A stretch of DNA of 64,000 nt from Candidatus Dojkabacteria bacterium (GTDB lineage Bacteria; Patescibacteriota; Dojkabacteria; J137): NCBI GenBank assembly GCA_030834985.1, contig JAUQWV010000002.1:4435-68434 (forward strand), read 5' to 3'. The position numbers and the translations under genes were made by a program. The notes beneath the pieces are model-generated. The model saw only the letters and a list, made by a program, of their open reading frames with translations. It was not told the origin of the DNA and searched no databases. Below, one piece after another: positions 39,815 through 57,393 of the stretch (position 1 is the stretch's first letter; every line of letters starts with the position of its first letter).

Positions 39815-39854
39815 TGGGAATATATGAATTAGAGCAGCTTATAGCCAATTCGCT

Positions 39855-41039
39855 CTACTGATTTATAACTATATCTAGAGTTGGAAATTCATTATAAGCA
39901 ATAAATGCTAACATTGCCCCTCCGCCGGTAGATATGTGATTGAATCCCGTTAAGCCTAGTTTGTTGATTGCGGCAATTGAATCGCCGCCGCCGGCAAGTT
40001 TGTAAGCAGAAGAATTCTGCGAAATAGCTTTGCCAACCGCTAAAGTGCCGGCGGCAGAAGTTTCCCATTCAAAAACCCCCATTGGACCATTCCATAAAAT
40101 GTTTTTTGCTCCAGAAATTGTTTGCACAAAAAGTTCGGTTGTTTTTGAGCCAATATCAATTGCTACTGTATTATCAGGTACTTGTTCGTCTAATGTAACG
40201 TGTGCTGATTTTGAGGCAACTTCATTAAATTCACTTGCAATTAAATGATCAACTGGCAGCACTAACTTATTCTCATAGTTGTTTAAAATTTCTTTAGCTA
40301 GACTTAATTTATCTTCTTCATAAAGTGAATTACCAATATTTACTCCTTTAGCTTTTAATAGTGTATAAGCCATTGCACCACCTATAACAACTTTTTCAGA
40401 AATCTCTGCCAATGCTTTTAAGGCATCTAACTTTTCAGATAACTTTGCACCTCCTAAAACGGAAACTAAATTGGCAGCGTTAGAAAATTTAGATAAAGCT
40501 TCAACTTCTTCAATAAATTTATATCCTAAATAACTTGGTAAGATTTTAGCTATGTCATAAGTAGATGCAGATTCTCTATAATCAGCAAATGCATCGTTCA
40601 CAAAAACTTCTCCAAATTGTGCAAGGTCTTTTGCAAAATTCATTCTAGTATCAGGATCTTTACTTTCTTCTTCTTTAAAAAATCTTATATTGTCTCCTAA
40701 AATTATTTTAGCCTCAAGATTTTTGGGGCTATTCTGGAATAGAACAAACTCAATTTCTTGACCTAGCTTTTCTTGAAGAACTTGATGAACATTCCAAAAG
40801 CTTAGTTCTTTGGAATAACTTTCAGGACGCCCCAAATGGGCAAGTATCGTTACTTGTTTAGCATTCTCAGCAAGATATTTAATTGTTTTTATTGATTCAT
40901 CTATTCTTGTTGCATCTATAACTTTCCCTTCTTTATCTACTGTAACATTAAGACATGCTCTTAATACAATACGTTTATTTTTTAAGTCTGCAATCTTATC
41001 TACTGAAAAATTTTGCAGATCACCACTTAGTTGATACAT
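39855..41039 (-). CDS. pgk: Phosphoglycerate kinase
   Basis: The N-terminal substrate-binding region RACLNVTVDKEGKVIDATRI and the hinge/ATP motifs (ILAHLGRPE, GGGDS) are present. Confidence 0.9.
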   Translation of the reverse strand: MYQLSGDLQNFSVDKIADLKNKRIVLRACLNVTVDKEGKVIDATRIDESIKTIKYLAENAKQVTILAHLGRPESYSKELSFWNVHQVLQEKLGQEIEFVLFQNSPKNLEAKIILGDNIRFFKEEESKDPDTRMNFAKDLAQFGEVFVNDAFADYRESASTYDIAKILPSYLGYKFIEEVEALSKFSNAANLVSVLGGAKLSEKLDALKALAEISEKVVIGGAMAYTLLKAKGVNIGNSLYEEDKLSLAKEILNNYENKLVLPVDHLIASEFNEVASKSAHVTLDEQVPDNTVAIDIGSKTTELFVQTISGAKNILWNGPMGVFEWETSAAGTLAVGKAISQNSSAYKLAGGGDSIAAINKLGLTGFNHISTGGGAMLAFIAYNEFPTLDIVINQ

Positions 41040-41049
41040 AGTTGTTTAC

Positions 41050-42075
41050 TTATAGATTTGAGTTTTTAACTACAGTTTCAATTAACTCTGCCATTCTATT
41101 TGAGTATCCCCATTCGTTGTCATACCAAGCAACAAGTTTAAAGAACCTAGGATTAAGTTCAATAGAAGCAGATGCGTCGTAAGTGCTTGAATAGGTATCA
41201 TGCGTAAAGTCACTTGAAACAACAGGATCTTCTGTATATTCTAGTATGCCTTTTAGGTATGTCTCACTAGCATTTTTCATTAGTTTATTAATTTCTTCTA
41301 AGCTAGTATCACGTGTTGTCCTAAAAGTTAAATCAATAACGGATCCTACAGCTACAGGTACTCTAAATGCCATTCCTGTAAGCTTTCCTTTTAAGTCAGG
41401 AAAGATTTCTCCCATCGACTTAGCTGCGCCTGATGTTGTAGGCACAATATTTGCAGCGGCAGCTCTTCCTCTTCTAAAATCACGATGAGGTGCATCTTGT
41501 AATTCTTGATCTGCAGTGTAAGCATGAATAGTAGTCATTAAACCTTCCTCAATTCCTATTCCTTCTTTAATCAACACATGAACAACTGGTGCTAAACAGT
41601 TTGTAGTACAGCTTGCATTTGATATTAAATCTTCACTTGCATATTCAGCCTCATTAACACCCATTAAGTAAGTTCTTACATCTTCATCACTTGGTGCTGA
41701 GATAATTACTTTTTTTGCTCCAGCTCGAATGTGACCTGCAGCATCAATCTTTTTTGTGAATGCTCCGGTTGATTCTACAACTATATCAATACCAAGATCT
41801 TTCCATGGTAGTTCTTCTGGCTTAACTTTCATTGATAAAGCTTTGATTGGTTTACCGTCAACTTCAATTGTATTTGCATCTACTGCTTTTATGGTACTTT
41901 TTAATTTACCATGTACTGTATCGTATTTAAGAAGATAAGCTAAGTTTTCTGCTCCAACTAAATCATTAACTGCAACAACTTCTATTAGTCCATCAAAAAA
42001 GTTTTTTTCAAGTAGCGCTCTATAAACTAATCGACCAATTCTTCCAAACCCATTAATAGCAACTTTAACTGCCAT
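41050..42075 (-). CDS. gap: Glyceraldehyde-3-phosphate dehydrogenase
   Basis: AINGFGRIGR (NAD-binding) and the catalytic ASCTTNCLAP are present. The start is taken at the internal Met (MAVKVAINGFGRIGR); the track ORF extends to 42102. Confidence 0.9.
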   Translation of the reverse strand: MAVKVAINGFGRIGRLVYRALLEKNFFDGLIEVVAVNDLVGAENLAYLLKYDTVHGKLKSTIKAVDANTIEVDGKPIKALSMKVKPEELPWKDLGIDIVVESTGAFTKKIDAAGHIRAGAKKVIISAPSDEDVRTYLMGVNEAEYASEDLISNASCTTNCLAPVVHVLIKEGIGIEEGLMTTIHAYTADQELQDAPHRDFRRGRAAAANIVPTTSGAAKSMGEIFPDLKGKLTGMAFRVPVAVGSVIDLTFRTTRDTSLEEINKLMKNASETYLKGILEYTEDPVVSSDFTHDTYSSTYDASASIELNPRFFKLVAWYDNEWGYSNRMAELIETVVKNSNL

Positions 42076-42164
42076 AGTGCAAACATAATATTTAAATTTC
42101 ACTTCATTCTAAATCTTTATGTGTATAATGGTCAATATAAAGATAGTTCTTAACGTTATTAAAC

Positions 42165-42824
42165 ATGTTGCTGCTTAATCTAAAGACTTATCCAGAGTCA
42201 ACACAAGGTAATGCTAAAAATTTATTAGACGTTGTAAATAACGTTATTACTGAAAATCCAAGTATAAAAGATAGAATAATAGTTTTGCCGGCTGCAACAG
42301 ATCTATTTTGGGTTAAGCAGAATTATCCTAATTTAATAATAGCTGCACAGCATGTTGATAATGTTGCAGCCGGCAAAAGCACAGGAGGAATTCCAGCTGA
42401 GTTAATTTTATCTTATGGCATTGAATATAGTTTATATAATCATAGCGAGAAAAGAGTAAATACTGACACTATAGTTGAAGATATTAAAGCTATTCAATCT
42501 AAAGGCTTAAAGTTGATTATATGCTGTGAAAATTCTACAGAGGCAAAGACAATAATGCAGGCAGAACCTTTTTCTATTGCTTACGAAACGCCTGATTTAA
42601 TAGGAAGTGGCATTTCAGTAACAACAAGACCTGAAGCTGTAAAAGAATTTGTTGATTCAGTTGCAGGTCAAAAGAATATTTTGATTGGTGCAGGTGTAAC
42701 AACAGGTGAAGATGTAAATAAATCTATTGAACTGGGCGCCGAAGGGGTTTTAGTTGCTTCAGCTTTTGTTAAGGCAGAAGATCCTTATCAAAAACTAAAA
42801 GAGCTTGTTCAACCGTGGTTATAA
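42165..42824 (+). CDS. tpiA: Triose-phosphate isomerase, short archaeal-type (~220 aa)
   Basis: LLLNLKTY (vs the NxK substrate loop), YNHSEKR (vs GHSERR) and AYETPDLIGSG (catalytic-Glu loop) are present. Length and motif spacing fit archaeal-type TIMs rather than ~250-aa bacterial ones. Confidence 0.75.
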   Translation: MLLLNLKTYPESTQGNAKNLLDVVNNVITENPSIKDRIIVLPAATDLFWVKQNYPNLIIAAQHVDNVAAGKSTGGIPAELILSYGIEYSLYNHSEKRVNTDTIVEDIKAIQSKGLKLIICCENSTEAKTIMQAEPFSIAYETPDLIGSGISVTTRPEAVKEFVDSVAGQKNILIGAGVTTGEDVNKSIELGAEGVLVASAFVKAEDPYQKLKELVQPWL

Positions 42825-42858
42825 GTATATTATATTAATATATTAGTAATTTAAATTT

Positions 42859-43929
42859 ATGAATTATTCCGAGATCCAGACTCTTTTGGCAGATAAGGCA
42901 GACTACTTATTAAATTTTAAATCTCAAACTTTTCAAGAACAGCAGTTTTATGTACCTTCACCTAATTGGCCAAACGATATTATGTCTTATTCCGATAGAA
43001 ATAATAGAGTGGTAGAACATTTAAATTTGCTTTATAAAACTGGAAGATTAGGCGGTTCTGGATATTTATCTATATTACCGATCGATCAAGGAATAGAGCA
43101 TTCTGCGGGGGCGAGCTTTGCCGCAAACCCTATGTATTTTGACCCAGAGAATATTGCAAAGCTCGCCTTAGAAGCAGGCAGCAGTGCAGTAGCTTCAACA
43201 TTGGGGGTATTGGGTTTAGTAAGTAAAAAATATGCCGACAAAATTCCTTTTATTGTTAAATTAAACCACAATGAACTTTTAACTTATCCAAATAAGCACG
43301 ATCAGATTTTCTTTGGACAAGTGCAGCAGGCATACGATATGGGAGCAAAAGGAGTTGGTGCCACAATATACTTTGGTTCCAAAGAATCCAATAGGCAGCT
43401 TCAAGAAGTATCGCAGGCATTTGCAGAAGCTCATAGATTAGGAATGTTTACTGTTTTATGGTGTTACGTTCGAAATCCGGGGTTTAAAAAAGATGGAGTA
43501 AATTATGAATTATCTGCAGATATTACAGGCCAAGCTAATCATTTAGGTGTGACAATTGAAGCAGATATTATTAAACAAAAATTACCAGAACTTAACGGCG
43601 GATTTAAGGCTTTAAGTACAGCAGAATCTTCATACGGAAAATTAGAAGAAAGAATATATACTCAATTATCAAGTGATCATCCAATAGACTTAGCTAAGTA
43701 CCAAGTAGCTAACTGCTATATGGGTAAAATTCCTTTAATCAGTTCAGGAGGTGCAAGTGGACAGAATGATTTAAAAGAAGCAGTCGAATTAGCAGTTATT
43801 AACAAACGTGCAGGAGGAAGCGGCTTGATTTTAGGCAGAAAGGCATTTCAGCATTCTCTTGAAGAAGGTATTAAAATCATAAATGCGGTACAAGATGTTT
43901 ACTTATCACAGGAAATAACAATTGCATAA
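42859..43929 (+). CDS. fbaB: Class I fructose-bisphosphate aldolase, DhnA/FbaB type
   Basis: There are near-identical blocks to the E. coli FbaB family: [80 protein letters not shown]. The length is 356 aa. Confidence 0.9.
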
Positions 43930-44878
43930 TCTAACTTTCAAAATACCACAAATGAACCCTTCTGGAAGGGTGGTTATTGTTGGCGCCGGCATGGTCGGCT
44001 CATCATCAGCTTATTGCTTGTTAATGCAAGAAGTTACTAAAGAGATTCTAATTATAGATATCGATGAGGATATGGCAAGAGCACAGGTCTTAGATATGCA
44101 TGATGCAGCTAATTTTACTAACGGCGCAGAAATTAAATATGCTACATATAATGATTTAGCTGATGGAGATATTGTTGTAATAACTGCCGGCGCCGCACAA
44201 AAAGAGGGCCAAAGCCGCCTAGATTTATTAAATACTAATGTAAAAATAATTAAGGATATTGTTGGGAAGATAAAAGACACAGAAAAAAAAGTATATATAC
44301 TTATGATTACAAATCCTGTTGATGTATTAACATATATTGCTGCAAAGGAATCGGGCTTGCCTAAAGGAATGGTATTTGGAAGCGGAACATTTTTAGATAC
44401 TGCTAGATTAAGAGGAATGCTCCACGAGGATTTAGGCGTTAATCCAATAAATGTTCATGCATATATTCTTGGCGAACATGGTGATAGTTCTTTTCCGGTA
44501 TTAAGTAGTGCCAACATTGGAGGAGTATCTTTATCAAATATTGTAAACGTTGACGAAGCTTACAGAAAAGAAACAGCAACTCGAGTTCGAGAAACTGCAT
44601 ACAAAATTATTGAAAGTAAAAAAGCAACATATTATGGAATAGGAGCTGCTGTTTCAAAAATATGCAGAGCAATAATTAGAGATGAGAATAGAATAATACC
44701 CCTAAGTGTAGTATTAGAAGGTGAATATGAACTCAGCGATTTAGCTATAGGTGTACCGGCCAAACTAGGATCAAAAGGTGTGGATGTGTATAAGGAAATA
44801 TCCTTAGATGATAATGAAAGAGAACTTCTAAAAAAATCTGCTGATATAATTAAACAAGCTATCTCACAAGTTAAGTAA
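43922..44878 (+). CDS. ldh: L-lactate dehydrogenase (LDH/MDH superfamily; LDH-type GEHGDS motif)
   Basis: It has the Rossmann motif [16 protein letters not shown] and GEHGDS. The true start may be the internal Met at about 43952. Confidence 0.8.
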
Positions 44879-44886
44879 CAAATAAT

Positions 44887-45180
44887 ATGACAGATGATAT
44901 TCCCAATATTCCTTTGGATGATAATGGAATTCCACAGGTAAGTCCTGAAGTTAAAAAAGATTTAGAATCGGCTTTAGAAAGTGCATTAAATGGTAAGCCT
45001 GCGATATTTGGGCCTTACCTCTTTTCTAATATCGTGTATAGCTATAAAGAAGGTGAAGATAAATATTATTCAGATTCTGGTAGATTAATATACCCAATAA
45101 CAGAGTACTGGGTATATTTAGATTCTAGAGATGGAATTATGTACGATATTGTTCCTATTAAAGATAGGCTTAATTTATAG
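44887..45180 (+). CDS. Small hypothetical protein
   Basis: This is a 97-aa ORF between ldh and the convergent eno. It has no recognisable motif and is retained only because the genome is AT-rich and random ORFs of this length are uncommon. Confidence 0.3.
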   Translation: MTDDIPNIPLDDNGIPQVSPEVKKDLESALESALNGKPAIFGPYLFSNIVYSYKEGEDKYYSDSGRLIYPITEYWVYLDSRDGIMYDIVPIKDRLNL

Positions 45181-46422
45181 TTCTTCAGAAATCCTTAAGA
45201 TCTCATTGTATTTTGCTGTTCTTTCCCCGCGGCTTGGTGCACCTGTTTTAATTTGTCCGCAACCTGTTCCTACAGCAATATGACTTATTGTGACGTCTTC
45301 AGTTTCTCCACTTCGGTGTGATAATACGTTATTCCAGCCTGCATCTGCAGCCATCCGCATAGCCTTTAACGTTTCTGTTAGTGAGCCAATTTGATTAACT
45401 TTTACAAGCAGAGCATTACAAGCTTTTTGCGCAATTGCTTCTTCAATTCTGCTAGTATTAGTTACTAATAAGTCGTCACCTACTATTTGTAGTTTGTCGC
45501 CAACTTTTGCAGTGAATGTACCCCAGCTTGCCCAATCATCTTCAGAAAATGGATCTTCAATGCTTATAAATGGATATTTTTCTACCCAACCTAATACAGT
45601 GTTTAGCCATTCTTCTTTTGATAATTCTCGATTTTCTGTTTTTAAAGTATATGTTCCTTTTTCTGAGTTATAGAATTCACTTGATGCAACATCTAGTGCA
45701 AAGAATACATCGGTACCCATTTTATATCCGGCAGCTTCAACTGCAGCAGTAATATTTTCCAAAGCTTCCTCATTGTTTTTAAATCCAGGAGCAAATCCAC
45801 CTTCATTCCCAACGTTAATGCTCATACCTTTATCTTTTAAGATCTTTTCTAAATGTAAGAAGATCTCACACCCTGCTCTTAACTGATCTACGTATTCCAT
45901 ATTTGGCATTACAACCATAAATTCCTGAATATCTGTTGACCAGTTTGCATGTTTACCTCCATTCATTATATTAAACATGGGTCTTGGTAATGTTATTTGG
46001 GGATTACCAAAAAGGTCATTGACATGTTTAAATAATGGAACTCCTTTAGATGCTGCCACAGCTTTTGTAAAAGCTAAAGATACGCCTAGAATTGCATTTG
46101 CTCCTAAGTTTGATTTAGTTTCAGTTCCGTCTAAAGCAATTAATGCATTGTCTAACTCTTCTTGTGAATTAAATTCTTTACCAACAATTGCATTAGCAAT
46201 TGTTGTCTTAACATTTTCAACTGCTTTTAATACACCTTTACCTAAAAAATTAGATTTATCTCCATCTCTTAATTCCAAAGCTTCGTGAGTTCCTGTAGAA
46301 GCACCGCTAGGTACAGCAGCTCTTCCAAATGAACCATCTTCTAAATATAAATCAACTTCGACTGTTGGAGTTGCTCTTGAATCTATAATTTGTCTAGCAT
46401 GAACTTTTGTAATTTTAGCCAT
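45175..46422 (-). CDS. eno: Enolase
   Basis: It has the N-terminus MAKITKVHARQIIDSRATPTVEVDL and the enolase signature SHRSGETED. Confidence 0.95.
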   Translation of the reverse strand: MAKITKVHARQIIDSRATPTVEVDLYLEDGSFGRAAVPSGASTGTHEALELRDGDKSNFLGKGVLKAVENVKTTIANAIVGKEFNSQEELDNALIALDGTETKSNLGANAILGVSLAFTKAVAASKGVPLFKHVNDLFGNPQITLPRPMFNIMNGGKHANWSTDIQEFMVVMPNMEYVDQLRAGCEIFLHLEKILKDKGMSINVGNEGGFAPGFKNNEEALENITAAVEAAGYKMGTDVFFALDVASSEFYNSEKGTYTLKTENRELSKEEWLNTVLGWVEKYPFISIEDPFSEDDWASWGTFTAKVGDKLQIVGDDLLVTNTSRIEEAIAQKACNALLVKVNQIGSLTETLKAMRMAADAGWNNVLSHRSGETEDVTISHIAVGTGCGQIKTGAPSRGERTAKYNEILRISEEL

Positions 46423-46562
46423 AATAAAAATTGGTGTAACAAATATTTATCTTCTGTGAGTGTTAGTAACAAATTATAATCGCTTTAAAAGAATTAGTCA
46501 TCTAATAATAGAATTATTAGATGAAATGATTTAAAATTCCCTTTGATTATAAATATTAAAAC

Positions 46563-47987
46563 TTGAATATGGATTTTTCCAAAAAGACAAAGATTGTGTG
46601 CACAATCGGGCCCTCAAGCTGGGATCCCGAGGTGATGAGAAAAATGATTGAAGCTGGTATGAATGTTGCAAGAGTAAATGGAGCATTTGCTGATGAGGCT
46701 GAGCTGGATAAAGTTACTAAACTTGTAAGAGATGTATCTGATGAAGTAGCTTTAATGATGGATATTAAAGGGCCAGAGGTAAGAATGAATAAGTTTGTAG
46801 AGCCAAAGCAGATTAAAGCAGGGGATCAAGTTGTTATAGGAAATACTGAAGCAGATGCAATTTATCCTGCTAACTATAAAGACTTATACACTTACCTAAA
46901 ACCAGGACAAAGATTAGTCGTTGGTGATGGAGATGTTGAATTAGTATTAAAAGAGATTCAAGGAGATAAAATGATTACAGAAGTAGTATTTGGTGAAGTA
47001 TTAAAACCAGGTAAAGCTTTAAATTTACCTGGAGCTAACTTTACTACATCTGCATTAACTGAAAAAGATATTATCAATTTAAAACATTCAATTTCGTTAG
47101 GCTGGGATTTTGTTTCTGCATCTTTTGTACAAAGTGCAGAATCTGCAAGAGAAATTAAAAAATATCTTGAAGGTTCAAGCATGAAGCTAATTGCAAAAAT
47201 TGAAGATGCAGAAGGTGTAAAAAATATTGAGGAAATTCTAGAAGAAGTAGAAGGCATAATGATTGCTCGAGGAGGTTTAGGAGTTGAATTAGGTTTAGAA
47301 AAAGTTCCAATGGTAGAAAAACTTTTAATAGAAAAGGCTACGACCGTTGGAAAACCAGTAATAACAGCAACTCAATTACTTGAGTCAATGACATATAACC
47401 CAAGACCAACAAGAGCTGAAGTAAATGATGTGGCGATGGCAGTTTTAATGGGTTCAGACTCAGTTATGTTATCAGGTGAAAGCTCTGCAGGAAAATATCC
47501 TGTTGAAGCTGTAAAAGAATTAACTAAAATATCTTTAGAGATTGAAAAACATATTGAGCCTGAGATAATGAAAACTAGAGCTTCAGCTTCAATAGTAGGA
47601 GATGCCATAACCAAAGCGGCTGCAGAAATGTGCATAAGTATGGAAACTCATATTGATGTAGTAATTATTGCTTCCAGAACGGGATCAACTCCAAGATTAT
47701 TAGGAAGGCATAGAATAAAACAACCGATCTATGCATTTGTAAGCGATAGTGCATATGCTAGAAGATTATCATTAAGTAAAGGAATAAATAGAGTGTTTAC
47801 TTTTGCAAAAACTTTTAAAGATAGAGATTTAGCAATAAACGAACTTGTTAAGGAGAGTTTAAGACTAGGAATTGTTACTAACGAATCTAGAATTTTATTT
47901 ATAGGTAAAGGTCCTATAGATGGCGGAAGCTACTTCCCAAATCTATTTGAAGTAATTAAGGTTGGAGATGTTATTCAGCAAAGTTAA
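46563..47987 (+). CDS. pyk: Pyruvate kinase
   Basis: KTKIVCTIGPSS and the catalytic-core motifs (MIARGGLGVE, MVARGDLG-like) are present, at 474 aa. Confidence 0.9.
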   Translation: MNMDFSKKTKIVCTIGPSSWDPEVMRKMIEAGMNVARVNGAFADEAELDKVTKLVRDVSDEVALMMDIKGPEVRMNKFVEPKQIKAGDQVVIGNTEADAIYPANYKDLYTYLKPGQRLVVGDGDVELVLKEIQGDKMITEVVFGEVLKPGKALNLPGANFTTSALTEKDIINLKHSISLGWDFVSASFVQSAESAREIKKYLEGSSMKLIAKIEDAEGVKNIEEILEEVEGIMIARGGLGVELGLEKVPMVEKLLIEKATTVGKPVITATQLLESMTYNPRPTRAEVNDVAMAVLMGSDSVMLSGESSAGKYPVEAVKELTKISLEIEKHIEPEIMKTRASASIVGDAITKAAAEMCISMETHIDVVIIASRTGSTPRLLGRHRIKQPIYAFVSDSAYARRLSLSKGINRVFTFAKTFKDRDLAINELVKESLRLGIVTNESRILFIGKGPIDGGSYFPNLFEVIKVGDVIQQS

Positions 47988-48007
47988 TTAACTTTGTAGA
48001 AAGTTTG

Positions 48008-48037
48008 AGGGCGCACCGTAGGTGCGCCCTTTATTTA
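48008..48037. terminator. GC-rich stem-loop terminator after pyk (also closes the last small ORF of the minus-strand island)
   Basis: The structure is AGGGCGCACC-GTA-GGTGCGCCCT followed by TTATTT on the plus strand. Confidence 0.7.
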
Positions 48038-48048
48038 TGTTGAAGCCC

Positions 48049-48324
48049 TTATGCAGGGACTTCTTGAAGGTTTGACAACTCGACAAACTCGTCAGGCGCA
48101 TCAGCTCGTTGAACGAACTTTGCTCCTGTCTCTGGTTCTATGATCACCACACCGGTGATTTGAGAACCGGGTGACAAGAACTCACCTTTCGCAGTAAATG
48201 TTGAGTTGATTGTCCTGATTTGCCCCCCATAGTCAAACGTGCCACCTACTATGTCCCGCTTTGTGTATAACGGTACCATAGTAAGCCCTTGTTTGACTTG
48301 GTACTTGCGCGCATCATCTGTCAT
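48049..48324 (-). CDS. Small hypothetical protein (91 aa) in GC-rich island
   Basis: It is one of four same-strand small ORFs in a compositionally atypical segment. There is no recognisable family. Confidence 0.35.
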   Translation of the reverse strand: MTDDARKYQVKQGLTMVPLYTKRDIVGGTFDYGGQIRTINSTFTAKGEFLSPGSQITGVVIIEPETGAKFVQRADAPDEFVELSNLQEVPA

Positions 48325-48468
48325 TATGTCCTCCTAAAATATTGATGCATACTCATTATATCATTTTTTTTGGGCATTTGAGCGTAAGGTGATCAGATAA
48401 GCATCTCTATAAGTCTTAATAAAGAAAGGTTTTGTTGTCGGCGAGCTACTCGCCGACAACAGGTGTGC

Positions 48469-48720
48469 TTACGCGGCAACGGGGTTTGCTTCAAAATCTT
48501 CTACCTTGATGGCGATTTCAAGTCCTTCGCCACCTACAAAAGGTAGGACAGATTTGACCGAGGCTAGACCTTCGTTGCCGTGGGGCGCGTCCAACTCGAC
48601 CTGCAAGAAGGTCCGTTCGCTCAGTGTTTGAGGGAAGGCGATAAATTCTTGCAGATGTTTGTTAAACCAATAAATGGATGCGCCGTTTTTGTTTACCTTG
48701 ACTTCCATGGTTTCCTCCAC
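48469..48720 (-). CDS. Small hypothetical protein (83 aa) in GC-rich island
   Basis: It is followed (on the minus strand) by the perfect hairpin 48433..48461. Confidence 0.35.
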   Translation of the reverse strand: MEETMEVKVNKNGASIYWFNKHLQEFIAFPQTLSERTFLQVELDAPHGNEGLASVKSVLPFVGGEGLEIAIKVEDFEANPVAA

Positions 48721-48833
48721 GAGATATTCAGGTAATGGATTTTATCACAATGTCGCTTGAAAGTATTGACAGACTATTGTTATAGAAAAGTTAAGAAGGT
48801 TGCACTGATAAGTCAGTGCAACCTTCAAAGACG

Positions 48834-49112
48834 TTATACGCTCGCGAGAGCGCTTACGTCCTTTTTCAGGACATAGGAGGGCTGTTTGGCCCCCACTACT
48901 TTGAGAAACGGACTGTCGTTTGTATCTTCGACAACAATTTCTCTCCCACACGGGATTTTAACGCTCCCATACGGGGTGAAGGTCTGCCGCCCTCCTGCCT
49001 TAAAATATGTTTGAGCGCCTTTCTGGGCAGTAACTACTACCTTCGTGCTGTTCATTTTTCTTACTCTCCCTTTCGAGGAAGAACACAATGAGCGATAGGA
49101 GAATGTTAACAC
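48834..49112 (-). CDS. Small hypothetical protein (92 aa; probably starts at the internal Met, giving about 73 aa) in GC-rich island
   Basis: It is followed by the perfect hairpin 48798..48823. The plus-strand antisense ORF here looks non-protein-like. Confidence 0.3.
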   Translation of the reverse strand: MLTFSYRSLCSSSKGRVRKMNSTKVVVTAQKGAQTYFKAGGRQTFTPYGSVKIPCGREIVVEDTNDSPFLKVVGAKQPSYVLKKDVSALASV

Positions 49113-49187
49113 TTTTATAGAGAATTACAAGCTTTAAGAAGCTTTCAGGAGGCTCGGGCCAAAGCCCGAGCCTCCTTATATGAAGGA

Positions 49188-49451
49188 CTAATTGGCAAGG
49201 TCTTGACTGTCGACAATGTCGGTTAGGAACACAAAACCTTCCACAACTCCTTGTCCTTCCGTGATGTCGATAGCAAGCATTGACTCTACCATTTCATTGC
49301 CGTTGCTATCGTTACCCAGTGTTACTAGGTTGCATGACTTTATCGTATATGATTCTGGCGGTACTGTTCCCGCTTCTTCAAATTCTTTCCCTGAATGAAC
49401 ATAATAAGGGATCTCCTCATCTTCAAGGACTTCAAGCACGAGCGATGCCAT
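49188..49451 (-). CDS. Small acidic hypothetical protein (87 aa) in GC-rich island
   Basis: It is followed by the perfect hairpin 49148..49175. Confidence 0.35.
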   Translation of the reverse strand: MASLVLEVLEDEEIPYYVHSGKEFEEAGTVPPESYTIKSCNLVTLGNDSNGNEMVESMLAIDITEGQGVVEGFVFLTDIVDSQDLAN

Positions 49452-49493
49452 TATCTTAATCCTTTTCTACTGGGCGATATATTGATTATATCA

Positions 49494-50738
49494 TCAATAA
49501 ATGAATTTTTCGTCATCTTTTTCGTCGTCATAGACAGTTTTGATGACTATCTCCTTTTCTGGGTTTTCTGAAGCATGCATTTCATCCAAAATTTCGTCTG
49601 CTTTTGATCTACGTTTGCCTCGTTTTTTAAGAACAAATACAACAGCAAAGCTAACAAAGATGAAAGCGATTCCAAGAATAAAAGCAAGAACATCTGTTCT
49701 TAAATTACTGAATATTAGAGCTATTGTACATACAACTACCATCATTGCTGTTTCAATAAGGGTTACTGTTTTTTTTGAATAGCCGGCATCCAAAAGCCTA
49801 TGGTGTAAGTGATTTTTATCACTTATCTGTAATATTTTTAACGGAGTTTTAATTAATTCAGGGTTGGATTTAAACCTCATATAAACAACTAAAATACCGT
49901 CTATAATTGGCATTGCTAGTATAATCAATGAAGCTGTCCATTTAGTACTACCCAAAATTGCAAATACTGCCAATAGAAATCCATTAATATAGTCGCCAAT
50001 TGATCCATACATAATTTTTCCTGGTGGATAGTTAAAGGGTAAAACTCCTAAAGTTGCTCCTAAATGGATTCCAATAAGAGCAGCTAACACAATATTTCCA
50101 TTGGCCAGGTTAATTAATAGTAATGTTACTAATGCAATGCTGGTTACGGAGCCATTTAATGCGTCTACACCTCCCACCCAATTAACAACATTAATTAGAC
50201 CTACAATCCATAATATAGTTAGAATATCTGCAGGGAATATAAAGTTATAAGTAAATCCTGCAAATCTAATGATCGTAGAAAACCAGTCAAAATGCAGTTG
50301 AATATCTAAAAAGTTTATTGATGTAATGCTGATTCCTGAAGCAACAACTATTGCAGCAGCTAACAATTGTCCAAGCAGCTGCAGTTTACTGTTTAATTCA
50401 AATTTATCATCTAAAAAGCCTGTAATAGCAATAATTATTATCCCAAGGATTACACCTTTTCCTACAGTAACAAAATCTCGGTTTAAAAATAGAGTAATTA
50501 AAATTGCACTTACAACTGCTAATCCCCCTAGTTTAGGATAAACATATTCATGAATTCTAGTTGCAATTCCTCTTTCACCTTTTGTCCTTAGCCTTGCAGG
50601 AAGATCCAATGCTCCAATTTTTAATGCTAGTTTACCCATTAGTGGGGTAAGAAGGAATGCAATTATAAAAGCAGTCAAAACAATTCCTGCAATTAAACTA
50701 AAATTGTTAGCTATGTATGGATTGGTAAATAAGTCCAT
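49494..50738 (-). CDS. Glycosyltransferase family 4 polyprenyl-phosphate N-acetylhexosamine-1-phosphate transferase (WecA/TagO-like; MraY superfamily) with basic/acidic C-terminal tail
   Basis: It has about 10 TMs, the DD motif (GFLDDKFEL), NVVNWVGGVDALNG (the NxxNxxDGxDGL equivalent) and HLHHRLL (the WecA-type HIHH motif). Confidence 0.7.
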   Translation of the reverse strand: MDLFTNPYIANNFSLIAGIVLTAFIIAFLLTPLMGKLALKIGALDLPARLRTKGERGIATRIHEYVYPKLGGLAVVSAILITLFLNRDFVTVGKGVILGIIIIAITGFLDDKFELNSKLQLLGQLLAAAIVVASGISITSINFLDIQLHFDWFSTIIRFAGFTYNFIFPADILTILWIVGLINVVNWVGGVDALNGSVTSIALVTLLLINLANGNIVLAALIGIHLGATLGVLPFNYPPGKIMYGSIGDYINGFLLAVFAILGSTKWTASLIILAMPIIDGILVVYMRFKSNPELIKTPLKILQISDKNHLHHRLLDAGYSKKTVTLIETAMMVVVCTIALIFSNLRTDVLAFILGIAFIFVSFAVVFVLKKRGKRRSKADEILDEMHASENPEKEIVIKTVYDDEKDDEKFIY

Positions 50739-50747
50739 TTTGTTATT

Positions 50748-51587
50748 TTAAGTTATTAAAGCGTAAATCTGTAAGGCAGCTATTAGAATTAATGCATTAA
50801 TAAATGTTACCATCCAAGATAATGTTAATGCGAATCTTCTATCTGATCTGAATATTTTTGTTATCACATTAAGCAGAAAACCTTCTATAAGCACTATCAC
50901 AATTCCTGCTATAAATATGATTGATTTATCTGACTGTTCCCATGATTTTTCTACATGATTATAAAAAACGGGGATGCTTAGGGGAATCCTATCAAATTCA
51001 AAAATCCCGCCTATAAATAATATGCCTGCGATTGCTATTAAAGATACGATCATAAAAGGGAGCGCCGGATTCTTCCACAACATAGATATCTCTAGCAGCT
51101 CTTGCCGGCGCTCAAAGTATACTCTAATAAATTCTAGTCTATCCTGCAGGCTTGGCTTTTTAGGAGTAATCTCAAATATCAGCTGATCACGGGATACCGG
51201 TGTGTCATCTATTCGTGTGTGTATTACTCTTTCTTCTTTAGGTATATCGGCTGATATTGGTTGATTTACCAATATAGGTTCTATGAGTTGCGCATCTTGC
51301 TGATTAAAAACCTTGATTCGCCTAGGCCTTGGTTTTGGTTTAACTACATTAGCTGCCTGAGCAAAGGAAGCTCCAAGACTACTAAATAAGCTTTTTTTGG
51401 GTTTTCTTTGTTCTATTTCATTTTCGTATCTATCCTCTTCATACTCGGGCTCGTTTTCAAAAGGCTCTGGTTGAATCTCTGTAAGGCTATCGGTATCTAT
51501 AATTTCATTCTGTTTTCGAGTTTCTTCCTGTTGCTCTTCGGAATCGTCTTCGTATAAAGGGTTTATTAGTGATCTTCTGATTTTCAT
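50748..51587 (-). CDS. Membrane protein with acidic, Glu-rich cytoplasmic N-terminal region and 4 C-terminal TMs
   Basis: An E/D-rich low-complexity N-terminus is followed by hydrophobic helices. Confidence 0.4.
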   Translation of the reverse strand: MKIRRSLINPLYEDDSEEQQEETRKQNEIIDTDSLTEIQPEPFENEPEYEEDRYENEIEQRKPKKSLFSSLGASFAQAANVVKPKPRPRRIKVFNQQDAQLIEPILVNQPISADIPKEERVIHTRIDDTPVSRDQLIFEITPKKPSLQDRLEFIRVYFERRQELLEISMLWKNPALPFMIVSLIAIAGILFIGGIFEFDRIPLSIPVFYNHVEKSWEQSDKSIIFIAGIVIVLIEGFLLNVITKIFRSDRRFALTLSWMVTFINALILIAALQIYALIT

Positions 51588-51719
51588 ACTGCCTCATTTT
51601 AACTTAATTTAAGTAAATGTGATATAATTCTAGGTAGTTGAAGCTGAATACTTTACTGTGGTTCAGCTTTTTTTGTACTTAATGTACAATGATTTTAGAT
51701 TAGTTATTAAACTTAAAAT

Positions 51720-52844
51720 ATGTCTCAAACAACAGAAATGATGTCTGCAATTAGACAGATTGCAGCAGAACGAAAAATTGATGCTGATGAAATTTTAGAG
51801 GCTATTAAATTCTCTTTAAAAACTGTTTTCATGGATTCCCATGGTATCGACAAAGAGAGTGGAGACTATGTAGAAGTCAATATGGATCCAGAGCAGGGTG
51901 ATCTATCTGTAACTGTAACTAAAGAAGTTGTAGATATACCTAGCAAAAATATTTTAGAAATTAGCCTTGATGAAGCTAAAAAGCTTAAAAAGAATGCTCA
52001 AGTTGGCGATTCTGTTAAAGTTGATGTAACTGGCGATGTAGATTTCGGCAGAATCGCCGCTCAAACCGCTCGTCAGGTAATTTTGCAAAAACTCAGAGAT
52101 TCTGAAAAGGAAGCTGTACTTAGACAGTTTACTGATAAAGTAGGTAAAATTATTAATGTTACAGTTCAAAGAGTATTACCTGAAGGTGATGTGATATGCG
52201 AAGTGGGTAAGGCAAAAGCAATTATGCCAAAAGAAGAGCGGGTAATGACAGAATTTTATAGACTGGGTTCTCAATTAAAAGTTCTCTTAAAGGCTATTGA
52301 CGAAGATATTAAAGGCAAATTTATGCTTATTTCTAGAGCAGATCCTGCATTCTTAGAAGAGCTTTTTGCTATGGAAATTCCAGAAATTGAATCTGGAACT
52401 GTAGAAATTATGAATATAGCTCGAGAAGCAGGTTCTAGATCAAAAGTTGCTGTAAGAAGTGTATCACAAGGTGTAGACCCAATTGGATCATGTGTTGGTC
52501 AAAAAGGTGTAAGAATTAATGCAATTTCTAACGAATTGAAAAATGGTAACTTTGAAGAAAAGATTGATATCATCTTGTGGGATGAAAACATTGAACAGTA
52601 CATAATGAATGCTATTAGACCAGCAAATTCAATAAGAGTAGAGATTACAGATAAAAAAGAAAAGACAGCGTTAATTGTTGTTCCCGATGATGAATTATCA
52701 TTGGCAATAGGTAAAGATGGTCAAAATGCAAGATTAGCATCTAAGCTAACTGGCTGGAATTTAGATATTGAGGGTGAAAGCGGACCTGGATCTAAGGCTT
52801 CAGAGGAAGAAATTCAGGAAGAAGCTACACCTGCTGTTGAGTAA
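51720..52844 (+). CDS. nusA: Transcription termination/antitermination factor NusA
   Basis: It has the N-terminal RNAP-binding domain, S1, and two KH motifs (GSCVGQKGVRINAI, AIGKDGQNARLASKLTGW). Confidence 0.9.
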   Translation: MSQTTEMMSAIRQIAAERKIDADEILEAIKFSLKTVFMDSHGIDKESGDYVEVNMDPEQGDLSVTVTKEVVDIPSKNILEISLDEAKKLKKNAQVGDSVKVDVTGDVDFGRIAAQTARQVILQKLRDSEKEAVLRQFTDKVGKIINVTVQRVLPEGDVICEVGKAKAIMPKEERVMTEFYRLGSQLKVLLKAIDEDIKGKFMLISRADPAFLEELFAMEIPEIESGTVEIMNIAREAGSRSKVAVRSVSQGVDPIGSCVGQKGVRINAISNELKNGNFEEKIDIILWDENIEQYIMNAIRPANSIRVEITDKKEKTALIVVPDDELSLAIGKDGQNARLASKLTGWNLDIEGESGPGSKASEEEIQEEATPAVE

Positions 52845-52848
52845 TTTT

Positions 52849-53199
52849 ATGAGTGTTCCTGTAAGAACCTGTATAGTAACAAAACAACGACATAATAAAT
52901 TTGATATGGTTAGGATAGTCTACTTTAACGACTACGTTAAAGTAGACCCTACTTTTAAAGAAAAGGGCAGAGGAGTTTATGTTCTTCCGGATCTTACAGT
53001 TTTTGACGAAGGAATTTTAAAGCACAGAATTGAACAAGGGTTAAAACTCAAGAGAACACTTGAGCAGGTTGAAGTTCTAAGATTAAAACAAGAATTTGAA
53101 GAAGCTGTAAAATTAAGAGAACAGGAAGCTTTAGAAGAGCATCAGGAAAAAATTGAAGAATTAAGAGCAGAAGAAGAGAATAAGCCGACAAATATTTAA
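52849..53199 (+). CDS. ylxR: YlxR/RnpM (DUF448) family RNA-binding protein
   Basis: It lies immediately after nusA. VPVRTCIVTK...GRGVYVLPD matches the YlxR RTC...GRGaY signature. The start is taken at the ATG at 52849 (the track ORF starts inside nusA). Confidence 0.75.
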   Translation: MSVPVRTCIVTKQRHNKFDMVRIVYFNDYVKVDPTFKEKGRGVYVLPDLTVFDEGILKHRIEQGLKLKRTLEQVEVLRLKQEFEEAVKLREQEALEEHQEKIEELRAEEENKPTNI

Positions 53200-53208
53200 C
53201 AAATACTG

Positions 53209-53281
53209 GCCCTATCGTCTAGTGGTCTAGGACATCACATTCTCAATGTGGTAACCCGGGTTCGAGTCCCGGTAGGGTCAT
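53209..53281 (+). tRNA. tRNA-Glu (anticodon CUC), CCA not encoded
   Basis: It has a cloverleaf: acceptor GGCCCTA/TAGGGTC, a D-arm, an anticodon stem TCACA/TGTGG with loop TTCTCAA, and a T-arm CCGGG-TTCGAGT-CCCGG. Confidence 0.8.
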
Positions 53282-54633: not shown

Positions 54634-57393
54634 ATGAAATACATAAAAGTCATAATAACTTTTATTTTTATAGTAATTTTAAGTGCGGCGCCGCTTAATC
54701 TTTATCCAAATTTATTAGCGGAGAGCGCCGTGCGTGGAGTTCCTGGTGATGGCTGGGCCGATGTAATAATCGGCCAGCCTGATTTTTCAGAAGTCTCACC
54801 GTATTCGGTTGTTTCAACTATGATGCATCTTCCTCACGGAGTCTATATTGATACTAATAATCCACTAGATAATAAGATGTATGTTTCAGATGCAGGGAAT
54901 AACAGAATATTAGGTTATAACCTTGCAGAGTGTTTGGAATCAGAAACAAATCCTTTAAATTGTGAACCAAACATAATAATAGGACAGCCAAGTGCGAATA
55001 CATCTGCATGTAATGGAGATTCTGCATATCAAAATTACCCAATACGTGCGCCGGCAACTGCATCTACACTTTGTTTATTGCAAGAAGATCAGCTTTCAAT
55101 TTCAGAAGGCGGCTCTGGCGCAAGTATGGCGGTTGATAGTCAAGGTAATTTATATTTCCCTGACTTTTGGAATAATAGGGTCTTAAAATATAATGCTCCC
55201 CTTTCAGAAGACACAAGTGCCGGTAAAGGAGACGCAATTGCAGATGAAGTCTGGGGGCAGGCTGATTTTACAGGAATACTTTGTAATCGTGGACTTGCGC
55301 AGCCAGCTGCTAATACTTTATGTTTTAGCTGGGGTAATTCAAATAACTGGACAGCAGGTGTAGATATAGATAGTCAGGATAATTTATGGATAGTTGATAG
55401 TGGTAATAATAGAGTTTTAAGATTTAATAATACTTCCGGTTCAATTAGTAAAACTCCAAGCCTAGTTTTAGGACAATCAAATTATACAAGTGCTACATCT
55501 GGAAGTACATTAAGCAAGCTTAGAGATCCTAATGCTGTTAGAGTTAACGATGATGGTGTAGTTTACGTTTCAGAAAGATACAATAATAGAATTCTTAAAT
55601 TCAGTCCACCTCTAACTAATGGAATGAGCGGGTCAACTTTTGGTTCAGGGTTTAATGCGCCATCAGGAGTAGATTTTGACCCCACAGAACCAGACAGCTT
55701 ATGGATATCTAATACTAACGATAATTCATTAGAATTATGGAGTGAAAATTCAGGTACTCTTGTTAGAACATTAGGCGGTGCAGATGGAAATATCATAGGA
55801 GATGTTACGGGCTCTATTGGAGTGGATTCAGAAGGTAATGTTTATGCAGCAACGGGATTAGGTAATTACAATAATACAGTAATTATATTTGAAAAAGATG
55901 GTGATGATGTTATTCCTTCCACTACTTTAACTCAGCCAACATCAGTAGGTAATTTTAAGGATATTAATCAATTAGCTGTTGGCAGAGGGTTGGCTGTTAC
56001 TGAAGATCAAGTTATTGTTGCAGATCAAGATAGGATAATGTTCTGGAATACTCCAAATGGTATAACAGATCTATATACAGGAAAGCCGGCAGATGGAACG
56101 GTTAGCAGGCCTACGGAAGACTACGGACCTTGCTGTATGTATCTTAAAACTGACGAAGATGGACACTTATACACATCTTTTGGCACGCATAATCTGCCGG
56201 CTAGAATTGCGGTATACAATCTGCCGCTTACACAGGGTGAAATACCATTTAAGGAAATCGCATTTCCTTTGAATCTTTTAGGCGGAGGAACAATACAAGC
56301 TGGACCATCTTATTCTGACGGTATTCCAGGCTTTTTGCCCACACCACATTCGGAGTTCTTATGGGTTTCGACAAGTATGTATAACAGAGTAGTAAGAATA
56401 CGTGATCCTTTAGGTGTTAGTCCGGTAGTTGATTATGTAATAGGGCAAACTAACGCTACTAATAACCAATGTAATCGAGGAGGCAACCCTGTAAGTGGAG
56501 CAACAAGTGTGACTATATGTAATGCAGGTGCATTAGCGCTTGATCGGTTTGGAAACTTTTATCTAGCTGATCACTGGCTAGAAGCATATGGCAATAATAG
56601 AACTTTAATATACTTAAACGGGACCTTGCCTACCGATAACACATCAGTTATTTATAATATTATTGCACCGGACGTAATTGTTCAGAATATTGCTATGTGG
56701 GAGCCAGCATTTGATTCGCAAAACCGGATGGTAGTAGGTTTTAATCCTTATTGGACAGGAACACCTTTTCCGATAGAAGATAGATGGTTTCCTGCGGTAT
56801 ATGAAGATATCATTGATTCAGGCAGTGGAACTCCGGATTATTTCCTAAAAGATTACCATTCTATGGTATTTAACGCAGCTTTTGATGAAGATGATAACCT
56901 TTATATTACAGATTTAAATCGAGGTAGAGTTCTAATATACTTGGCGCCACTTGCCGATAATAATCCCCAACTAACGCAAGTCACTCCAGTACCATCAGTA
57001 GTTTCTGATAGAACCCCTAATTATACTTTCCATACAGATAAAGCAGGTACTTTAACGTATGGAGGTGATTGTTCAAGTTCAGTTACAAACGCAGTAATAG
57101 GAAACAACACTATTACATTTAATACTTTATCTATTGGTATTCACTCTAACTGTACAATAAGGCTTACAGATAGTCAGGATTATCAAAGTAACATCTTAAA
57201 TGTAAACACATTTACTATTAGCTTTAAATCCCGGGGAGATTTCAACAGCGATGGCAATATTAACTTATCTGATCTAAGTATACTTGCTACATATTGGATG
57301 AAATCTAATACAGCTGCAGATGCTAACAATGATAATTCTGTAAATATATCTGACTTAAGCATTCTAGCTCAATACTGGATGCAAAATTTTTAA
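54634..57393 (+). CDS. Secreted NHL-repeat beta-propeller protein (919 aa) with C-terminal tandem dockerin-like module
   Basis: It has a signal peptide and repeated NHL-type blades (GNNRILGYN, NNRVLKYN, GNNRVLRFN, NNRILKFS). The C-terminus is RGDFNSDGNINLSDLSILATYW...DANNDNSVNISDLSILAQYWMQNF. Confidence 0.7.
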   Translation: MKYIKVIITFIFIVILSAAPLNLYPNLLAESAVRGVPGDGWADVIIGQPDFSEVSPYSVVSTMMHLPHGVYIDTNNPLDNKMYVSDAGNNRILGYNLAECLESETNPLNCEPNIIIGQPSANTSACNGDSAYQNYPIRAPATASTLCLLQEDQLSISEGGSGASMAVDSQGNLYFPDFWNNRVLKYNAPLSEDTSAGKGDAIADEVWGQADFTGILCNRGLAQPAANTLCFSWGNSNNWTAGVDIDSQDNLWIVDSGNNRVLRFNNTSGSISKTPSLVLGQSNYTSATSGSTLSKLRDPNAVRVNDDGVVYVSERYNNRILKFSPPLTNGMSGSTFGSGFNAPSGVDFDPTEPDSLWISNTNDNSLELWSENSGTLVRTLGGADGNIIGDVTGSIGVDSEGNVYAATGLGNYNNTVIIFEKDGDDVIPSTTLTQPTSVGNFKDINQLAVGRGLAVTEDQVIVADQDRIMFWNTPNGITDLYTGKPADGTVSRPTEDYGPCCMYLKTDEDGHLYTSFGTHNLPARIAVYNLPLTQGEIPFKEIAFPLNLLGGGTIQAGPSYSDGIPGFLPTPHSEFLWVSTSMYNRVVRIRDPLGVSPVVDYVIGQTNATNNQCNRGGNPVSGATSVTICNAGALALDRFGNFYLADHWLEAYGNNRTLIYLNGTLPTDNTSVIYNIIAPDVIVQNIAMWEPAFDSQNRMVVGFNPYWTGTPFPIEDRWFPAVYEDIIDSGSGTPDYFLKDYHSMVFNAAFDEDDNLYITDLNRGRVLIYLAPLADNNPQLTQVTPVPSVVSDRTPNYTFHTDKAGTLTYGGDCSSSVTNAVIGNNTITFNTLSIGIHSNCTIRLTDSQDYQSNILNVNTFTISFKSRGDFNSDGNINLSDLSILATYWMKSNTAADANNDNSVNISDLSILAQYWMQNF

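Follow-up and report, generated by a model that had tools for sequence, protein, structure and literature searches.

Between pyk and a gene of the MraY/WecA family (Glycos_transf_4, hereafter GT4), the 64-kb window analysed here (64,000 nucleotides of contig JAUQWV010000002.1 from a Candidatus Dojkabacteria bacterium, to which all coordinates refer unless stated) carries a tandem array of four small open reading frames (ORF1 to ORF4). All four are located on the minus strand, encode 73-91 aa and are separated by spacers of 144, 125 and 132 bp, and each is accompanied by a perfect hairpin, with RNA folding free energies (dG) ranging from -20 to -30 kcal/mol. An earlier note on this DNA had described four co-oriented units of one ORF and one hairpin, placed between convergent gene ends. 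Both points are borne out, the PK/PK_C and Glycos_transf_4 genes on either side being convergent. The palindromes are indeed perfect, although their arms measure 10-14 bp instead of the 11-13 bp given there.

Read along the minus strand, a unit consists of an extended -10 element (TGnTAnAAT), a leader of ~25 nt containing a canonical or near-canonical Shine-Dalgarno (SD) sequence, an ORF of 73-91 codons and a terminator hairpin. The TGnTAnAAT elements stand 30-40 nt upstream in most units, with the ORF3 promoter being less clear. The features of the interval are as follows, GC3 denoting the GC content at third codon positions:

46563..47987, plus strand: pyk (pyruvate kinase; PF00224/PF02887), conserved left flank of the hotspot, invariant in 6 strains and used as the query for related loci
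48008..48030: T1, perfect hairpin with 10-bp arms and 3-nt loop, putative bidirectional terminator common to pyk (plus strand) and ORF1 (minus strand); dG -20.3 kcal/mol, T-run on the plus strand
48049..48324, minus strand: ORF1, 91 aa, acidic (pI 4.8), orphan; found without variation in all strains examined; GC3 0.47
48330-48335, minus strand: SD of ORF1, AGGAGG, 5 nt upstream of the ATG
48355-48363, minus strand: extended -10 of ORF1, sequence TGATATAAT
48433..48461, minus strand: T2, perfect hairpin with 13-bp arms 3' of the ORF2 stop, followed by a T-rich tract; dG -23.0 kcal/mol
48469..48708, minus strand: ORF2, 79 aa counted from the SD-preceded ATG, acidic, C-terminus ...NPVAA, orphan; GC3 0.53
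48714-48718, minus strand: SD of ORF2, GGAGG, 5 nt upstream of the ATG
48739-48749, minus strand: extended -10 of ORF2, sequence TGTGATAAAAT
48795..48826, minus strand: T3, perfect hairpin with 14-bp arms, 4-nt loop and T-rich tail, 3' of the ORF3 stop; dG -23.9 kcal/mol
48834..49055, minus strand: ORF3, 73 aa, basic (pI 9.6), predicted to form a standalone SH3b-like beta-barrel that ends in a disordered tail containing Ala; no variation among the strains
49064-49070, minus strand: SD-like GGGAGAG of ORF3, 8 nt upstream of the ATG
49103-49111 (TGTTAACAT) or 49114-49119 (TATAAA), minus strand: candidate -10 elements of ORF3, an assignment less certain than that of the other units
49147..49176, minus strand: T4, perfect hairpin with 13-bp arms and 4-nt loop, 3' of the ORF4 stop; dG -30.4 kcal/mol
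49188..49451, minus strand: ORF4, 87 aa, strongly acidic with a net charge of about -16, orphan; in NCBI as hypothetical protein IH575_00925 [Candidatus Dojkabacteria bacterium]
49460-49464, minus strand: SD-like AAGGA of ORF4, 8 nt upstream of the ATG
49485-49493, minus strand: extended -10 of ORF4, sequence TGATATAAT, directly abutting the GT4 stop codon
49494..50738, minus strand: GT4 (PF00953), conserved right flank of the hotspot; orthologues flank the arrays of the related loci L010 and L009/L017

Composition and expression signals of the array

The segment from 48032 to 49460 has a GC content of 0.448, compared to 0.342 in ~8 kb of flanking DNA. In windows of 300 nt, values of 0.42-0.48 within the island give way to 0.30-0.37 outside, with an abrupt shift at both borders. 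The excess is concentrated at third codon positions: GC3 is 0.47, 0.53, 0.54 and 0.42 for ORF1 to ORF4 respectively, whereas 37 long native ORFs have a mean of 0.217 (standard deviation 0.030, maximum 0.293). Codon usage differs accordingly, with TTA falling from 0.56 of Leu codons in native genes to 0.04 in the island and AGA from 0.65 to 0.14 of Arg codons, while ATC rises from 0.11 to 0.65 for Ile and AAC from 0.26 to 0.86 for Asn. The tetranucleotide L1 distance of the island is 0.495 against a native mean of 0.261 (standard deviation 0.035; z 6.7), making it the top outlier of the window with 0 of 298 same-size windows as deviant. The claim that the island is compositionally foreign hence holds for GC, GC3, codon usage and k-mers alike, the sliding-window GC and tetranucleotide comparisons being those that the earlier note had proposed.

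Other GC-rich patches are found in the window. Those at 10.3 kb and 17.0-17.7 kb fall within large Gly/Ser/Thr-rich surface-protein ORFs and are not comparable islands, because their GC stems from the amino-acid composition of these proteins. The 17.0-17.7 kb patch is caused by a 660-aa Gly/Cys-rich putative surface protein with a poly-Gly run. A further patch at 62-63.3 kb contains an 81-aa ORF as its sole listed ORF.

An abrupt compositional shift at both borders is also what contaminant DNA joined into the contig, or an assembly chimera, would produce. This explanation is refuted by recurrence in independent assemblies. An identical ORF1 protein occurs in 77 indexed blocks of independent assemblies, and in 8 of the 8 places listed (24 contigs read) the genes follow the order GT4, island, pyk, eno, ldh. 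Samples with the locus include SRR27098861, SRR28719891 and JGI Ga0226835. Four loci are 100% identical to the window across 1.7 kb, and the locus is present both on a JGI metagenome contig and in an NCBI Dojkabacteria metagenome-assembled genome (MAG). Identical junctions are thus seen across many independent Logan, JGI and NCBI assemblies, which excludes the misassembly that the earlier note had considered. Furthermore, the ORF4 promoter abuts the GT4 stop codon, T1 is common to pyk and ORF1, and the same organisation occurs in sister lineages. Relatives of the Pyk protein belong to Patescibacteria (BroJett037, 75% identity; MAGs labelled 'Saccharibacteria', 70-74%; Dojkabacteria, 57%).

The island also stands apart in its translation signals. 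At 41 long native ORFs, the best match to AGGAGG between positions -20 and -4 was 2-3 of 6 in 35 ORFs, and a full match was found in none. A scan of the 64 kb that is free of start-codon choice returned a correctly spaced SD and start codon at real gene starts for the island ORFs only. The resident genome is essentially without Shine-Dalgarno sequences, and native leaders are A/T-rich; no rRNA is present in the 64-kb window. The flanking glycolytic genes show neither a GC3 shift nor an SD. The promoter type is shared more widely, with TGATATAAT also occurring upstream of native nusA. We read the four units as monocistronic promoter-SD-ORF-terminator modules, whose translation signals and codons appear alien to the host genome, given that native ORFs are without SD while the island ORFs carry one.

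Coding status, folding and products of the units

Another shared property is the self-complementarity of the coding sequences. Compared to dinucleotide shuffles, all 12 units analysed fold with negative z-scores (about -3, ranging from -1.6 to -6.2); a separate shuffle set gave -5.3 for ORF1 and -4.9 for ORF3, none of 200 shuffles reaching the native stability. Control z-scores were near zero, at -0.39 ± 1.19 in 36 segments of native DNA and -0.22 ± 0.72 in 41 segments of natural mid-GC coding sequence (p 1.3e-7, Mann-Whitney). The excess folding stays when only synonymous codons are shuffled (z -0.7 to -5.05), and the excess self-complementarity is seen on both strands.

Such folding could suggest that the units are structured non-coding RNA genes, stable and GC-rich within an AT-rich genome, in which the ORFs are incidental. 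Each unit has its own promoter and terminator, and an open frame of the length observed is not very rare, arising in 2-18% of shuffles for single units. We nevertheless regard this as highly implausible. In all units an SD is located 5-8 nt ahead of the ATG and the frame runs exactly to the terminator. Selection could be measured on two contigs of a sister lineage, L010 (BroJett037) and L021, which are described below. Their small ORFs differ by 44 changes, 31 synonymous and 13 nonsynonymous, corresponding to a ratio of nonsynonymous to synonymous divergence (pN/pS) of 0.12; neutral expectation is 78% nonsynonymous (p 1.6e-11). This comparison shows that the sister-lineage units are protein-coding and under purifying selection. 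The window ORFs themselves show no polymorphism for such a test, and their coding support comes from the SD-ATG frame running to the terminator and from the joint improbability of four open frames. In addition, the protein fold of ORF3 is predicted with confidence, and conservation of its homologue is apparent at the protein level.

Nor is there support for one particular conserved RNA structure. Substitutions between L010 and L021 neither avoid nor compensate predicted pairs (22 fall in pairs compared to 23.6 expected, and 14 of the 22 break the pair), and Rfam gave no match near any gathering score. As pairs are uncompensated, both strands are affected and there is no Rfam family, the foldedness is read as a general property, either selected or inherited, and not as that of a specific non-coding RNA. 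Synonymous divergence (pS) between the two contigs is 0.10 in the small ORFs and 0.06 in the intergenic spacers, compared to 0.42 in the adjacent C-terminus of pyk. The low array values may reflect either recent exchange between strains or synonymous-site constraint.

The encoded proteins frequently end in alanine. A C-terminal Ala is present in 6/12 unit proteins versus 6/69 native proteins (Fisher p 0.0017), a C-terminal AA in 3 versus 0, and Ala accounts for 42% of residues at the three C-terminal positions in units compared to 6% in native proteins. It is plausible that these tails act as an ssrA-like degron, making the proteins short-lived.

None of the four window proteins had been assigned a family when first described, and none was found in Pfam, PHROG, PADLOC, NCBIfam or PDB-sequence searches. 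The window and BroJett ORFs were without matches in Pfam, PHROGs, PADLOC and NCBIfam (for PADLOC models, 0 matches at E<=1 for 10 small proteins), the family libraries returning sub-threshold noise (RNaseH_like E 0.15, PUA E 0.022, OB_RRP5 E 0.09). ORF3 has no Pfam match to SH3_3, SH3_5 or similar at E<=1, and a PDB sequence search with ORF1, ORF2 and ORF4 gave nothing. No relatives were detected in IMG/VR (6 scans), INPHARED or PLSDB by tblastn. An ORF3 profile run against 5.8e9 clusters matches only itself and the BroJett form, and the ORF4 database search recovered only itself. An exhaustive HMMER search with ORF1 against 1.84e9 representatives returned itself and one weak WD40-blade-like match, in which residues 40-72 (NSTFTAKGEFLSPGSQITGVVIIEPETGAKFVQ) resemble a single blade (SVAFSADGRYLATGS..TVRCYDPETGEE) of a 1013-aa WD40 protein. 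Homology to WD40 proteins (E 9.6e-10) was rejected, as the score sums a single 33-residue blade-like motif over six repeats; the resemblance is likely only that of a beta-hairpin motif. A relation between ORF2 and BroJett s1 (E 0.007 in a tiny database) was likewise discarded as unsupported, with a pairwise BLASTP E of 1.1.

Acidic proteins make up 7 of the 11 array proteins tabulated, and ORF4 has a net charge of about -16. The AlphaFold model of ORF3, made with its single homologue, has a predicted local distance difference test score (pLDDT) of 84.7 and a predicted template modelling score of 0.71, and displays a barrel of six to seven strands followed by a disordered tail. ORF3 is hence confidently modelled as a standalone SH3b-like barrel that matches bacterial SH3b structures, whereas the AlphaFold2 model of ORF4 (pLDDT 62) is too low in confidence for a fold search. 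The predicted ORF3 fold resembles the SH3b domains of the lipoteichoic acid-binding domain of SlpA, of lysostaphin and of phage endolysin cell wall-binding domains. It differs from these in that its 73 aa stand alone, unaccompanied by a catalytic domain or partner, and sequence identity is 10-19%; no signal peptide is apparent by eye at its N-terminus (MNSTKVVVTAQ...). The SH3-like barrel is a very common fold, and for this reason the ligand and function of ORF3 are not inferable from it. We propose that the array encodes single-domain proteins that are small and soluble, rich in beta structure and for the most part acidic.

Turnover of the units and surroundings of the interval

Comparison of strains shows that units are lost within the species. 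Three haplotypes are present: full, lacking ORF4, and lacking both ORF2 and ORF4. Absence of ORF4 only is seen in L002 and L005, and ORF4 is also gone in L001 and L016. The ORF4 deletion removed 272 bp (49167-49438) between two GCTCG microhomologies, so that what is left of the terminator is now joined to the ATG and five codons. ORF2 is mostly deleted (~207 bp, about 48507-48713) in L001, L008 and L016, with the ORF4 state of L008 unscored as that contig stops before it. The former ORF2 promoter spacer of the ORF2-deleted strains carries 6/123 substitutions and has thus decayed after the loss. None of the strains compared differs in pyk, ORF1 or ORF3. The strains form a recombination mosaic: across 42049-53279, comparison to L001-L008 and L016 gives differences at 83/1248 positions in eno (L004), at 32/1245 in GT4 (L001) and at 14-20 positions in nusA.

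Wherever pyk and GT4 are convergent neighbours in the three related lineages, the gap is always filled by units of the same anatomy. The BroJett037 locus (L010; Pyk 75% identical) contains six intact small ORFs (s1-s6, 69-98 aa) and one pseudogene within 2.5 kb (9423-11941 of that contig), each unit with its own hairpin, TGnTAnAAT and SD. GC3 is 0.36-0.58 in five of these small ORFs and host-like (0.205) in s1. In L021, a second BroJett-lineage contig that is 94% identical, the ORF corresponding to the L010 pseudogene is intact (78 aa), bringing the array to at least seven intact units; the L010 copy carries a nonsense change (TGG>TGA). The L009/L017 lineage (Pyk 83% identical) has one unit and a GC-rich, stop-ridden remnant. 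A promoter-like element and a hairpin accompany each unit in the L010 and L017 arrays too. The same core-flanked interval thus holds different content in each related genome: four units in the window, six and a pseudogene in L010, at least seven in L021, and one with a remnant in L009/L017. More distant relatives (L012, L013, L018) display a different synteny. The L009 contig (JAWXCF010000087.1) was deposited as a 'Bacteroidota bacterium' MAG; its organisation of pyk, small ORF, GT4 and a 279-aa gene, together with the proteins, is that of the Patescibacteria locus L017, and it is probably misbinned.

Within one array, the proteins are mutually unrelated. Between lineages, all-against-all protein comparison found a sole relation, that of window ORF3 with BroJett s4 (about 37-40% identity). 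The remaining 10 of 11 array proteins are without a cross-lineage relative, also when searched by tblastn against the other gaps. The pyk-GT4 gap can hence be considered a long-lived hotspot with gene turnover, since related lineages hold same-kind arrays with different genes. This replaces the earlier picture of a single inserted island of ~1.45 kb. Conservation of the ORFs at this locus in relatives, which the earlier note had named as counting against its reading, extends to ORF3 only, through its 37% identical homologue in BroJett037. Strains of this species have lost units through microhomology deletion, and BroJett037 has lost one through a nonsense mutation.

The manner of loss also bears on whether the array is integron-like, i.e. 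a recombinase-driven cassette array such as an orphan immunity gene array. As in integrons, small co-oriented ORFs are each followed by an inverted repeat, and cassette number varies between strains and lineages. Integron attC sites are imperfect palindromes of 55-140 nt with R''/L''...L'/R' cores (GTTRRRY), and their cassettes are mostly promoterless, expressed from Pc. The hairpins here are perfect, 23-32 nt long, unique in sequence and terminator-like, and no GTTRRRY core was found at unit boundaries. Each unit has its own promoter, no tyrosine recombinase is nearby, and no IntI or attI was detected, the search for a recombinase domain being limited to the array-flanking genes. Strain losses are imprecise microhomology deletions inside the coding sequence that keep the start codon, not precise excisions. 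The integron explanation is thus largely refuted and barely credible. The term 'cassette-like' used in the earlier note remains apt for putative autonomous transcription units but fails in its integron sense, with no integrase or attC nearby.

A degraded prophage or mobile element that left true morons or anti-defence genes behind is a further explanation. The unit layout fits the moron definition, with own promoter and terminator and deviant GC (PMC3594210). Small acidic orphans are typical of phage accessory genes, and the predicted fold of ORF3 resembles standalone SH3 proteins and the SH3b modules of phage endolysins. On the other hand, no integrase, att-like repeats, tRNA target or phage structural and replication genes are located within ~15 kb, and neither PHROG matches nor relatives in IMG/VR and INPHARED were found. 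The presence of different units at the same site in three lineages would require repeated insertion followed by complete erosion. We therefore hold such a remnant to be distinctly improbable; the phage origin floated in the earlier note finds no direct support, IMG/VR, INPHARED and PLSDB having yielded no relative from a phage or plasmid. The single tRNA of the window, tRNA-Glu (CTC) at 53207-53281, lies 3.7 kb from the island and, not being adjacent, is no obvious integration target.

Beyond the array, a near-complete glycolysis supercluster of 11.5 kb extends over 36472-47987 (gpmI, pfk, a 187-aa gene, pgk, gap, tpi, a DeoC-type aldolase, ldh, a 97-aa gene, eno and pyk). The acidic 97-aa gene (44887-45180), located between ldh and eno with a 6-nt overlap with the 3' end of eno, is conserved in all strains. 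It was considered as an island-class unit, given TGATATAAT 37 nt upstream, and rejected for its native composition and for having no SD and no hairpin. Adjoining GT4 in all three lineages is the gene for a 279-aa protein (50748-51587) with no Pfam match, whose N-terminal half is acidic and of low complexity and which has transmembrane segments towards its C-terminus. This gene is the sole native one with a partial SD-like sequence (ATGAGG). Very large putative surface proteins are encoded at 16249-18231, 9084-12389, 54634-57393 and 58176-60977, two of them, of ~920 aa, with NHL repeats and C-terminal dockerin domains.

Origin of the units and comparison with known systems

We consider it fairly likely that the locus is a tandem array of four autonomous monocistronic mini-genes in a lineage-conserved accessory hotspot, acquired unit-wise by horizontal gene transfer (HGT) and lost by deletion or inactivation. 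The units would have been gained singly from an unsampled source of ~50% GC that uses SDs, the gap between convergent essential genes presumably being the one tolerant site. Spread among strains may occur by homologous recombination through the conserved flanks, with natural transformation as a plausible route. Saccharibacteria are naturally competent, and a convergent-ORF gap has served as a neutral insertion site for homologous recombination (PMC10633639), evidence that is documented for Saccharibacteria and not for Dojkabacteria. Units would be lost again through microhomology deletion and point inactivation, and gain and loss one by one would leave the gene sets of related lineages almost non-overlapping, as observed. 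The products may be dispensable binders or inhibitors in conflict or interaction with phages, hosts or competitors, a speculative role proposed by analogy to morons and anti-defence genes. The effector or immunity-type role raised in the earlier note is likewise a guess.

Several observations weigh against this model. The search for a donor or homologue (5.8e9 clustered proteins, IMG/VR, INPHARED, PLSDB) came back empty, and for this reason the case for horizontal origin is one of composition and signals. An empty pyk-GT4 junction was not found in any relative examined. If ORF3 and s4 are orthologues kept since the split of their lineages (Pyk 75% identical, synonymous sites saturated), their GC3 should be ~0.2 unless selected. 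Part of the 'foreign' GC3 could indeed be selected and not donor-inherited, because synonymous sites favour pairing and pS is four-fold below that of pyk.

The main rival is that of a native, vertically inherited, fast-evolving cluster of small proteins, in which the odd GC3, SDs and promoters are selected (stable structured mRNA, SD-driven translation) and the sets have diverged beyond recognition except for ORF3/s4. The locus type is kept in three lineages, ORF3 and s4 are homologous, the TGATATAAT promoter type is shared with native nusA, and BroJett s1 has a host-like GC3 (0.205). The excess folding under synonymous shuffles, together with a pS of 0.10 versus 0.42, indicates a synonymous constraint able to hold GC3 high, which genuinely favours part of this view. 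However, the adjoining and presumably well expressed glycolytic genes display no GC3 shift or SD, and the island codons CGG, CTC, GCG and CCG are GC-rich and not typical of translational optimality. In addition, the array proteins are mutually unrelated, 10/11 have no cross-lineage relative, and strains lose units readily. Such a native origin hence appears rather unlikely.

A more far-reaching proposal, which we regard as unlikely, is that the units form an undescribed class of standardised, self-expressing mini-cassettes with a shared chassis, circulating in Patescibacteria and possibly in phages or hosts. The chassis would comprise the extended -10, an SD for privileged or conditional translation, the self-complementary coding sequence, an Ala-rich degron and the terminator. 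The self-complementarity might serve a hyper-stable mRNA or a single-stranded transfer intermediate. Mini-cassettes of this kind would accumulate without a recombinase at specific convergent gaps, and would encode an epibiont-host or phage conflict toolkit.

Patescibacteria have tiny genomes with little accessory room, and little has been learned about which genes underlie their lineage-specific interactions. The hotspot model describes the locus as a compact, recombinase-free site at which orphan mini-genes are gained and lost, carrying SD signals that the resident genes lack. It is unusual, and testable, that unrelated orphans should share SDs that the genome around them lacks, highly structured coding sequences and Ala tails. 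If the shared syntax is functional, it could mean that accessory genes of SD-less bacteria are translated and stabilised under a regime of their own, and it could offer a practical route to find such genes genome-wide in the candidate phyla radiation (CPR). It could also provide natural promoter, ribosome-binding site and terminator parts, as well as a neutral insertion site, for Dojkabacteria-like genetics. Should the locus be no more than a small HGT islet coding for hypothetical proteins, the finding would be routine.

Among known systems, the closest architectural analogue appears to be the phage moron, defined by its own promoter and terminator and a deviant GC content (PMC3594210), although the defining phage context is absent. 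Morons such as HK97 gp15 and lambda-like units are, as the units appear to be, single small accessory genes with their own sigma70-type promoter and factor-independent terminator. They are likewise deviant in GC, placed between conserved genes, variable between relatives, and often conflict-related or uncharacterised (PMC3594210). In the array, an own promoter and terminator are recognisable at the sequence level and the composition is deviant, but the location is not that of a phage, with pyk, eno and ldh on one side, GT4, nusA and ylxR on the other, and no phage genes within ~15 kb. The array further differs in occupying a glycolysis/cell-envelope housekeeping region of a bacterial chromosome and not a phage or prophage, in holding several unrelated units in tandem at one site with no phage homologues found, and in its SD-bearing units within an SD-less host genome.

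In chromosomal HGT hotspots, a fixed core-gene interval gathers lineage-specific accessory genes by homologous recombination of the flanks, with no dedicated recombinase. The pyk-GT4 gap resembles these in that different accessory genes occupy the same core-gene interval across lineages and strains, content varying between lineages and presence or absence varying within the species (three haplotypes). As for acquisition from outside, composition, codon usage and SDs are foreign, while no donor or homologue was found. The gap differs from such hotspots in being very small (0.8-2.5 kb, in a reduced CPR genome of roughly 1 Mb), and in containing only 67-98-aa orphans with a common syntax, which consists of an extended -10, an SD, a coding sequence of high self-complementarity, a hairpin and, in many cases, a C-terminus rich in Ala.

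Loci of the acr type and the recombinase-associated acquired interbacterial defence (AID) clusters of Bacteroidales consist of clustered small, frequently acidic, fast-turnover orphans of heterogeneous GC. The array shares the small acidic orphans, rapid turnover and heterogeneous GC, and differs in having no aca-type regulator, recombinase, toxin or immunity family match, or mobile-element context; no recombinase or phage gene is located within ~15 kb of it. In our classification, the locus is a miniature hotspot without a recombinase, set in a CPR chromosome and filled with orphan units that resemble morons.

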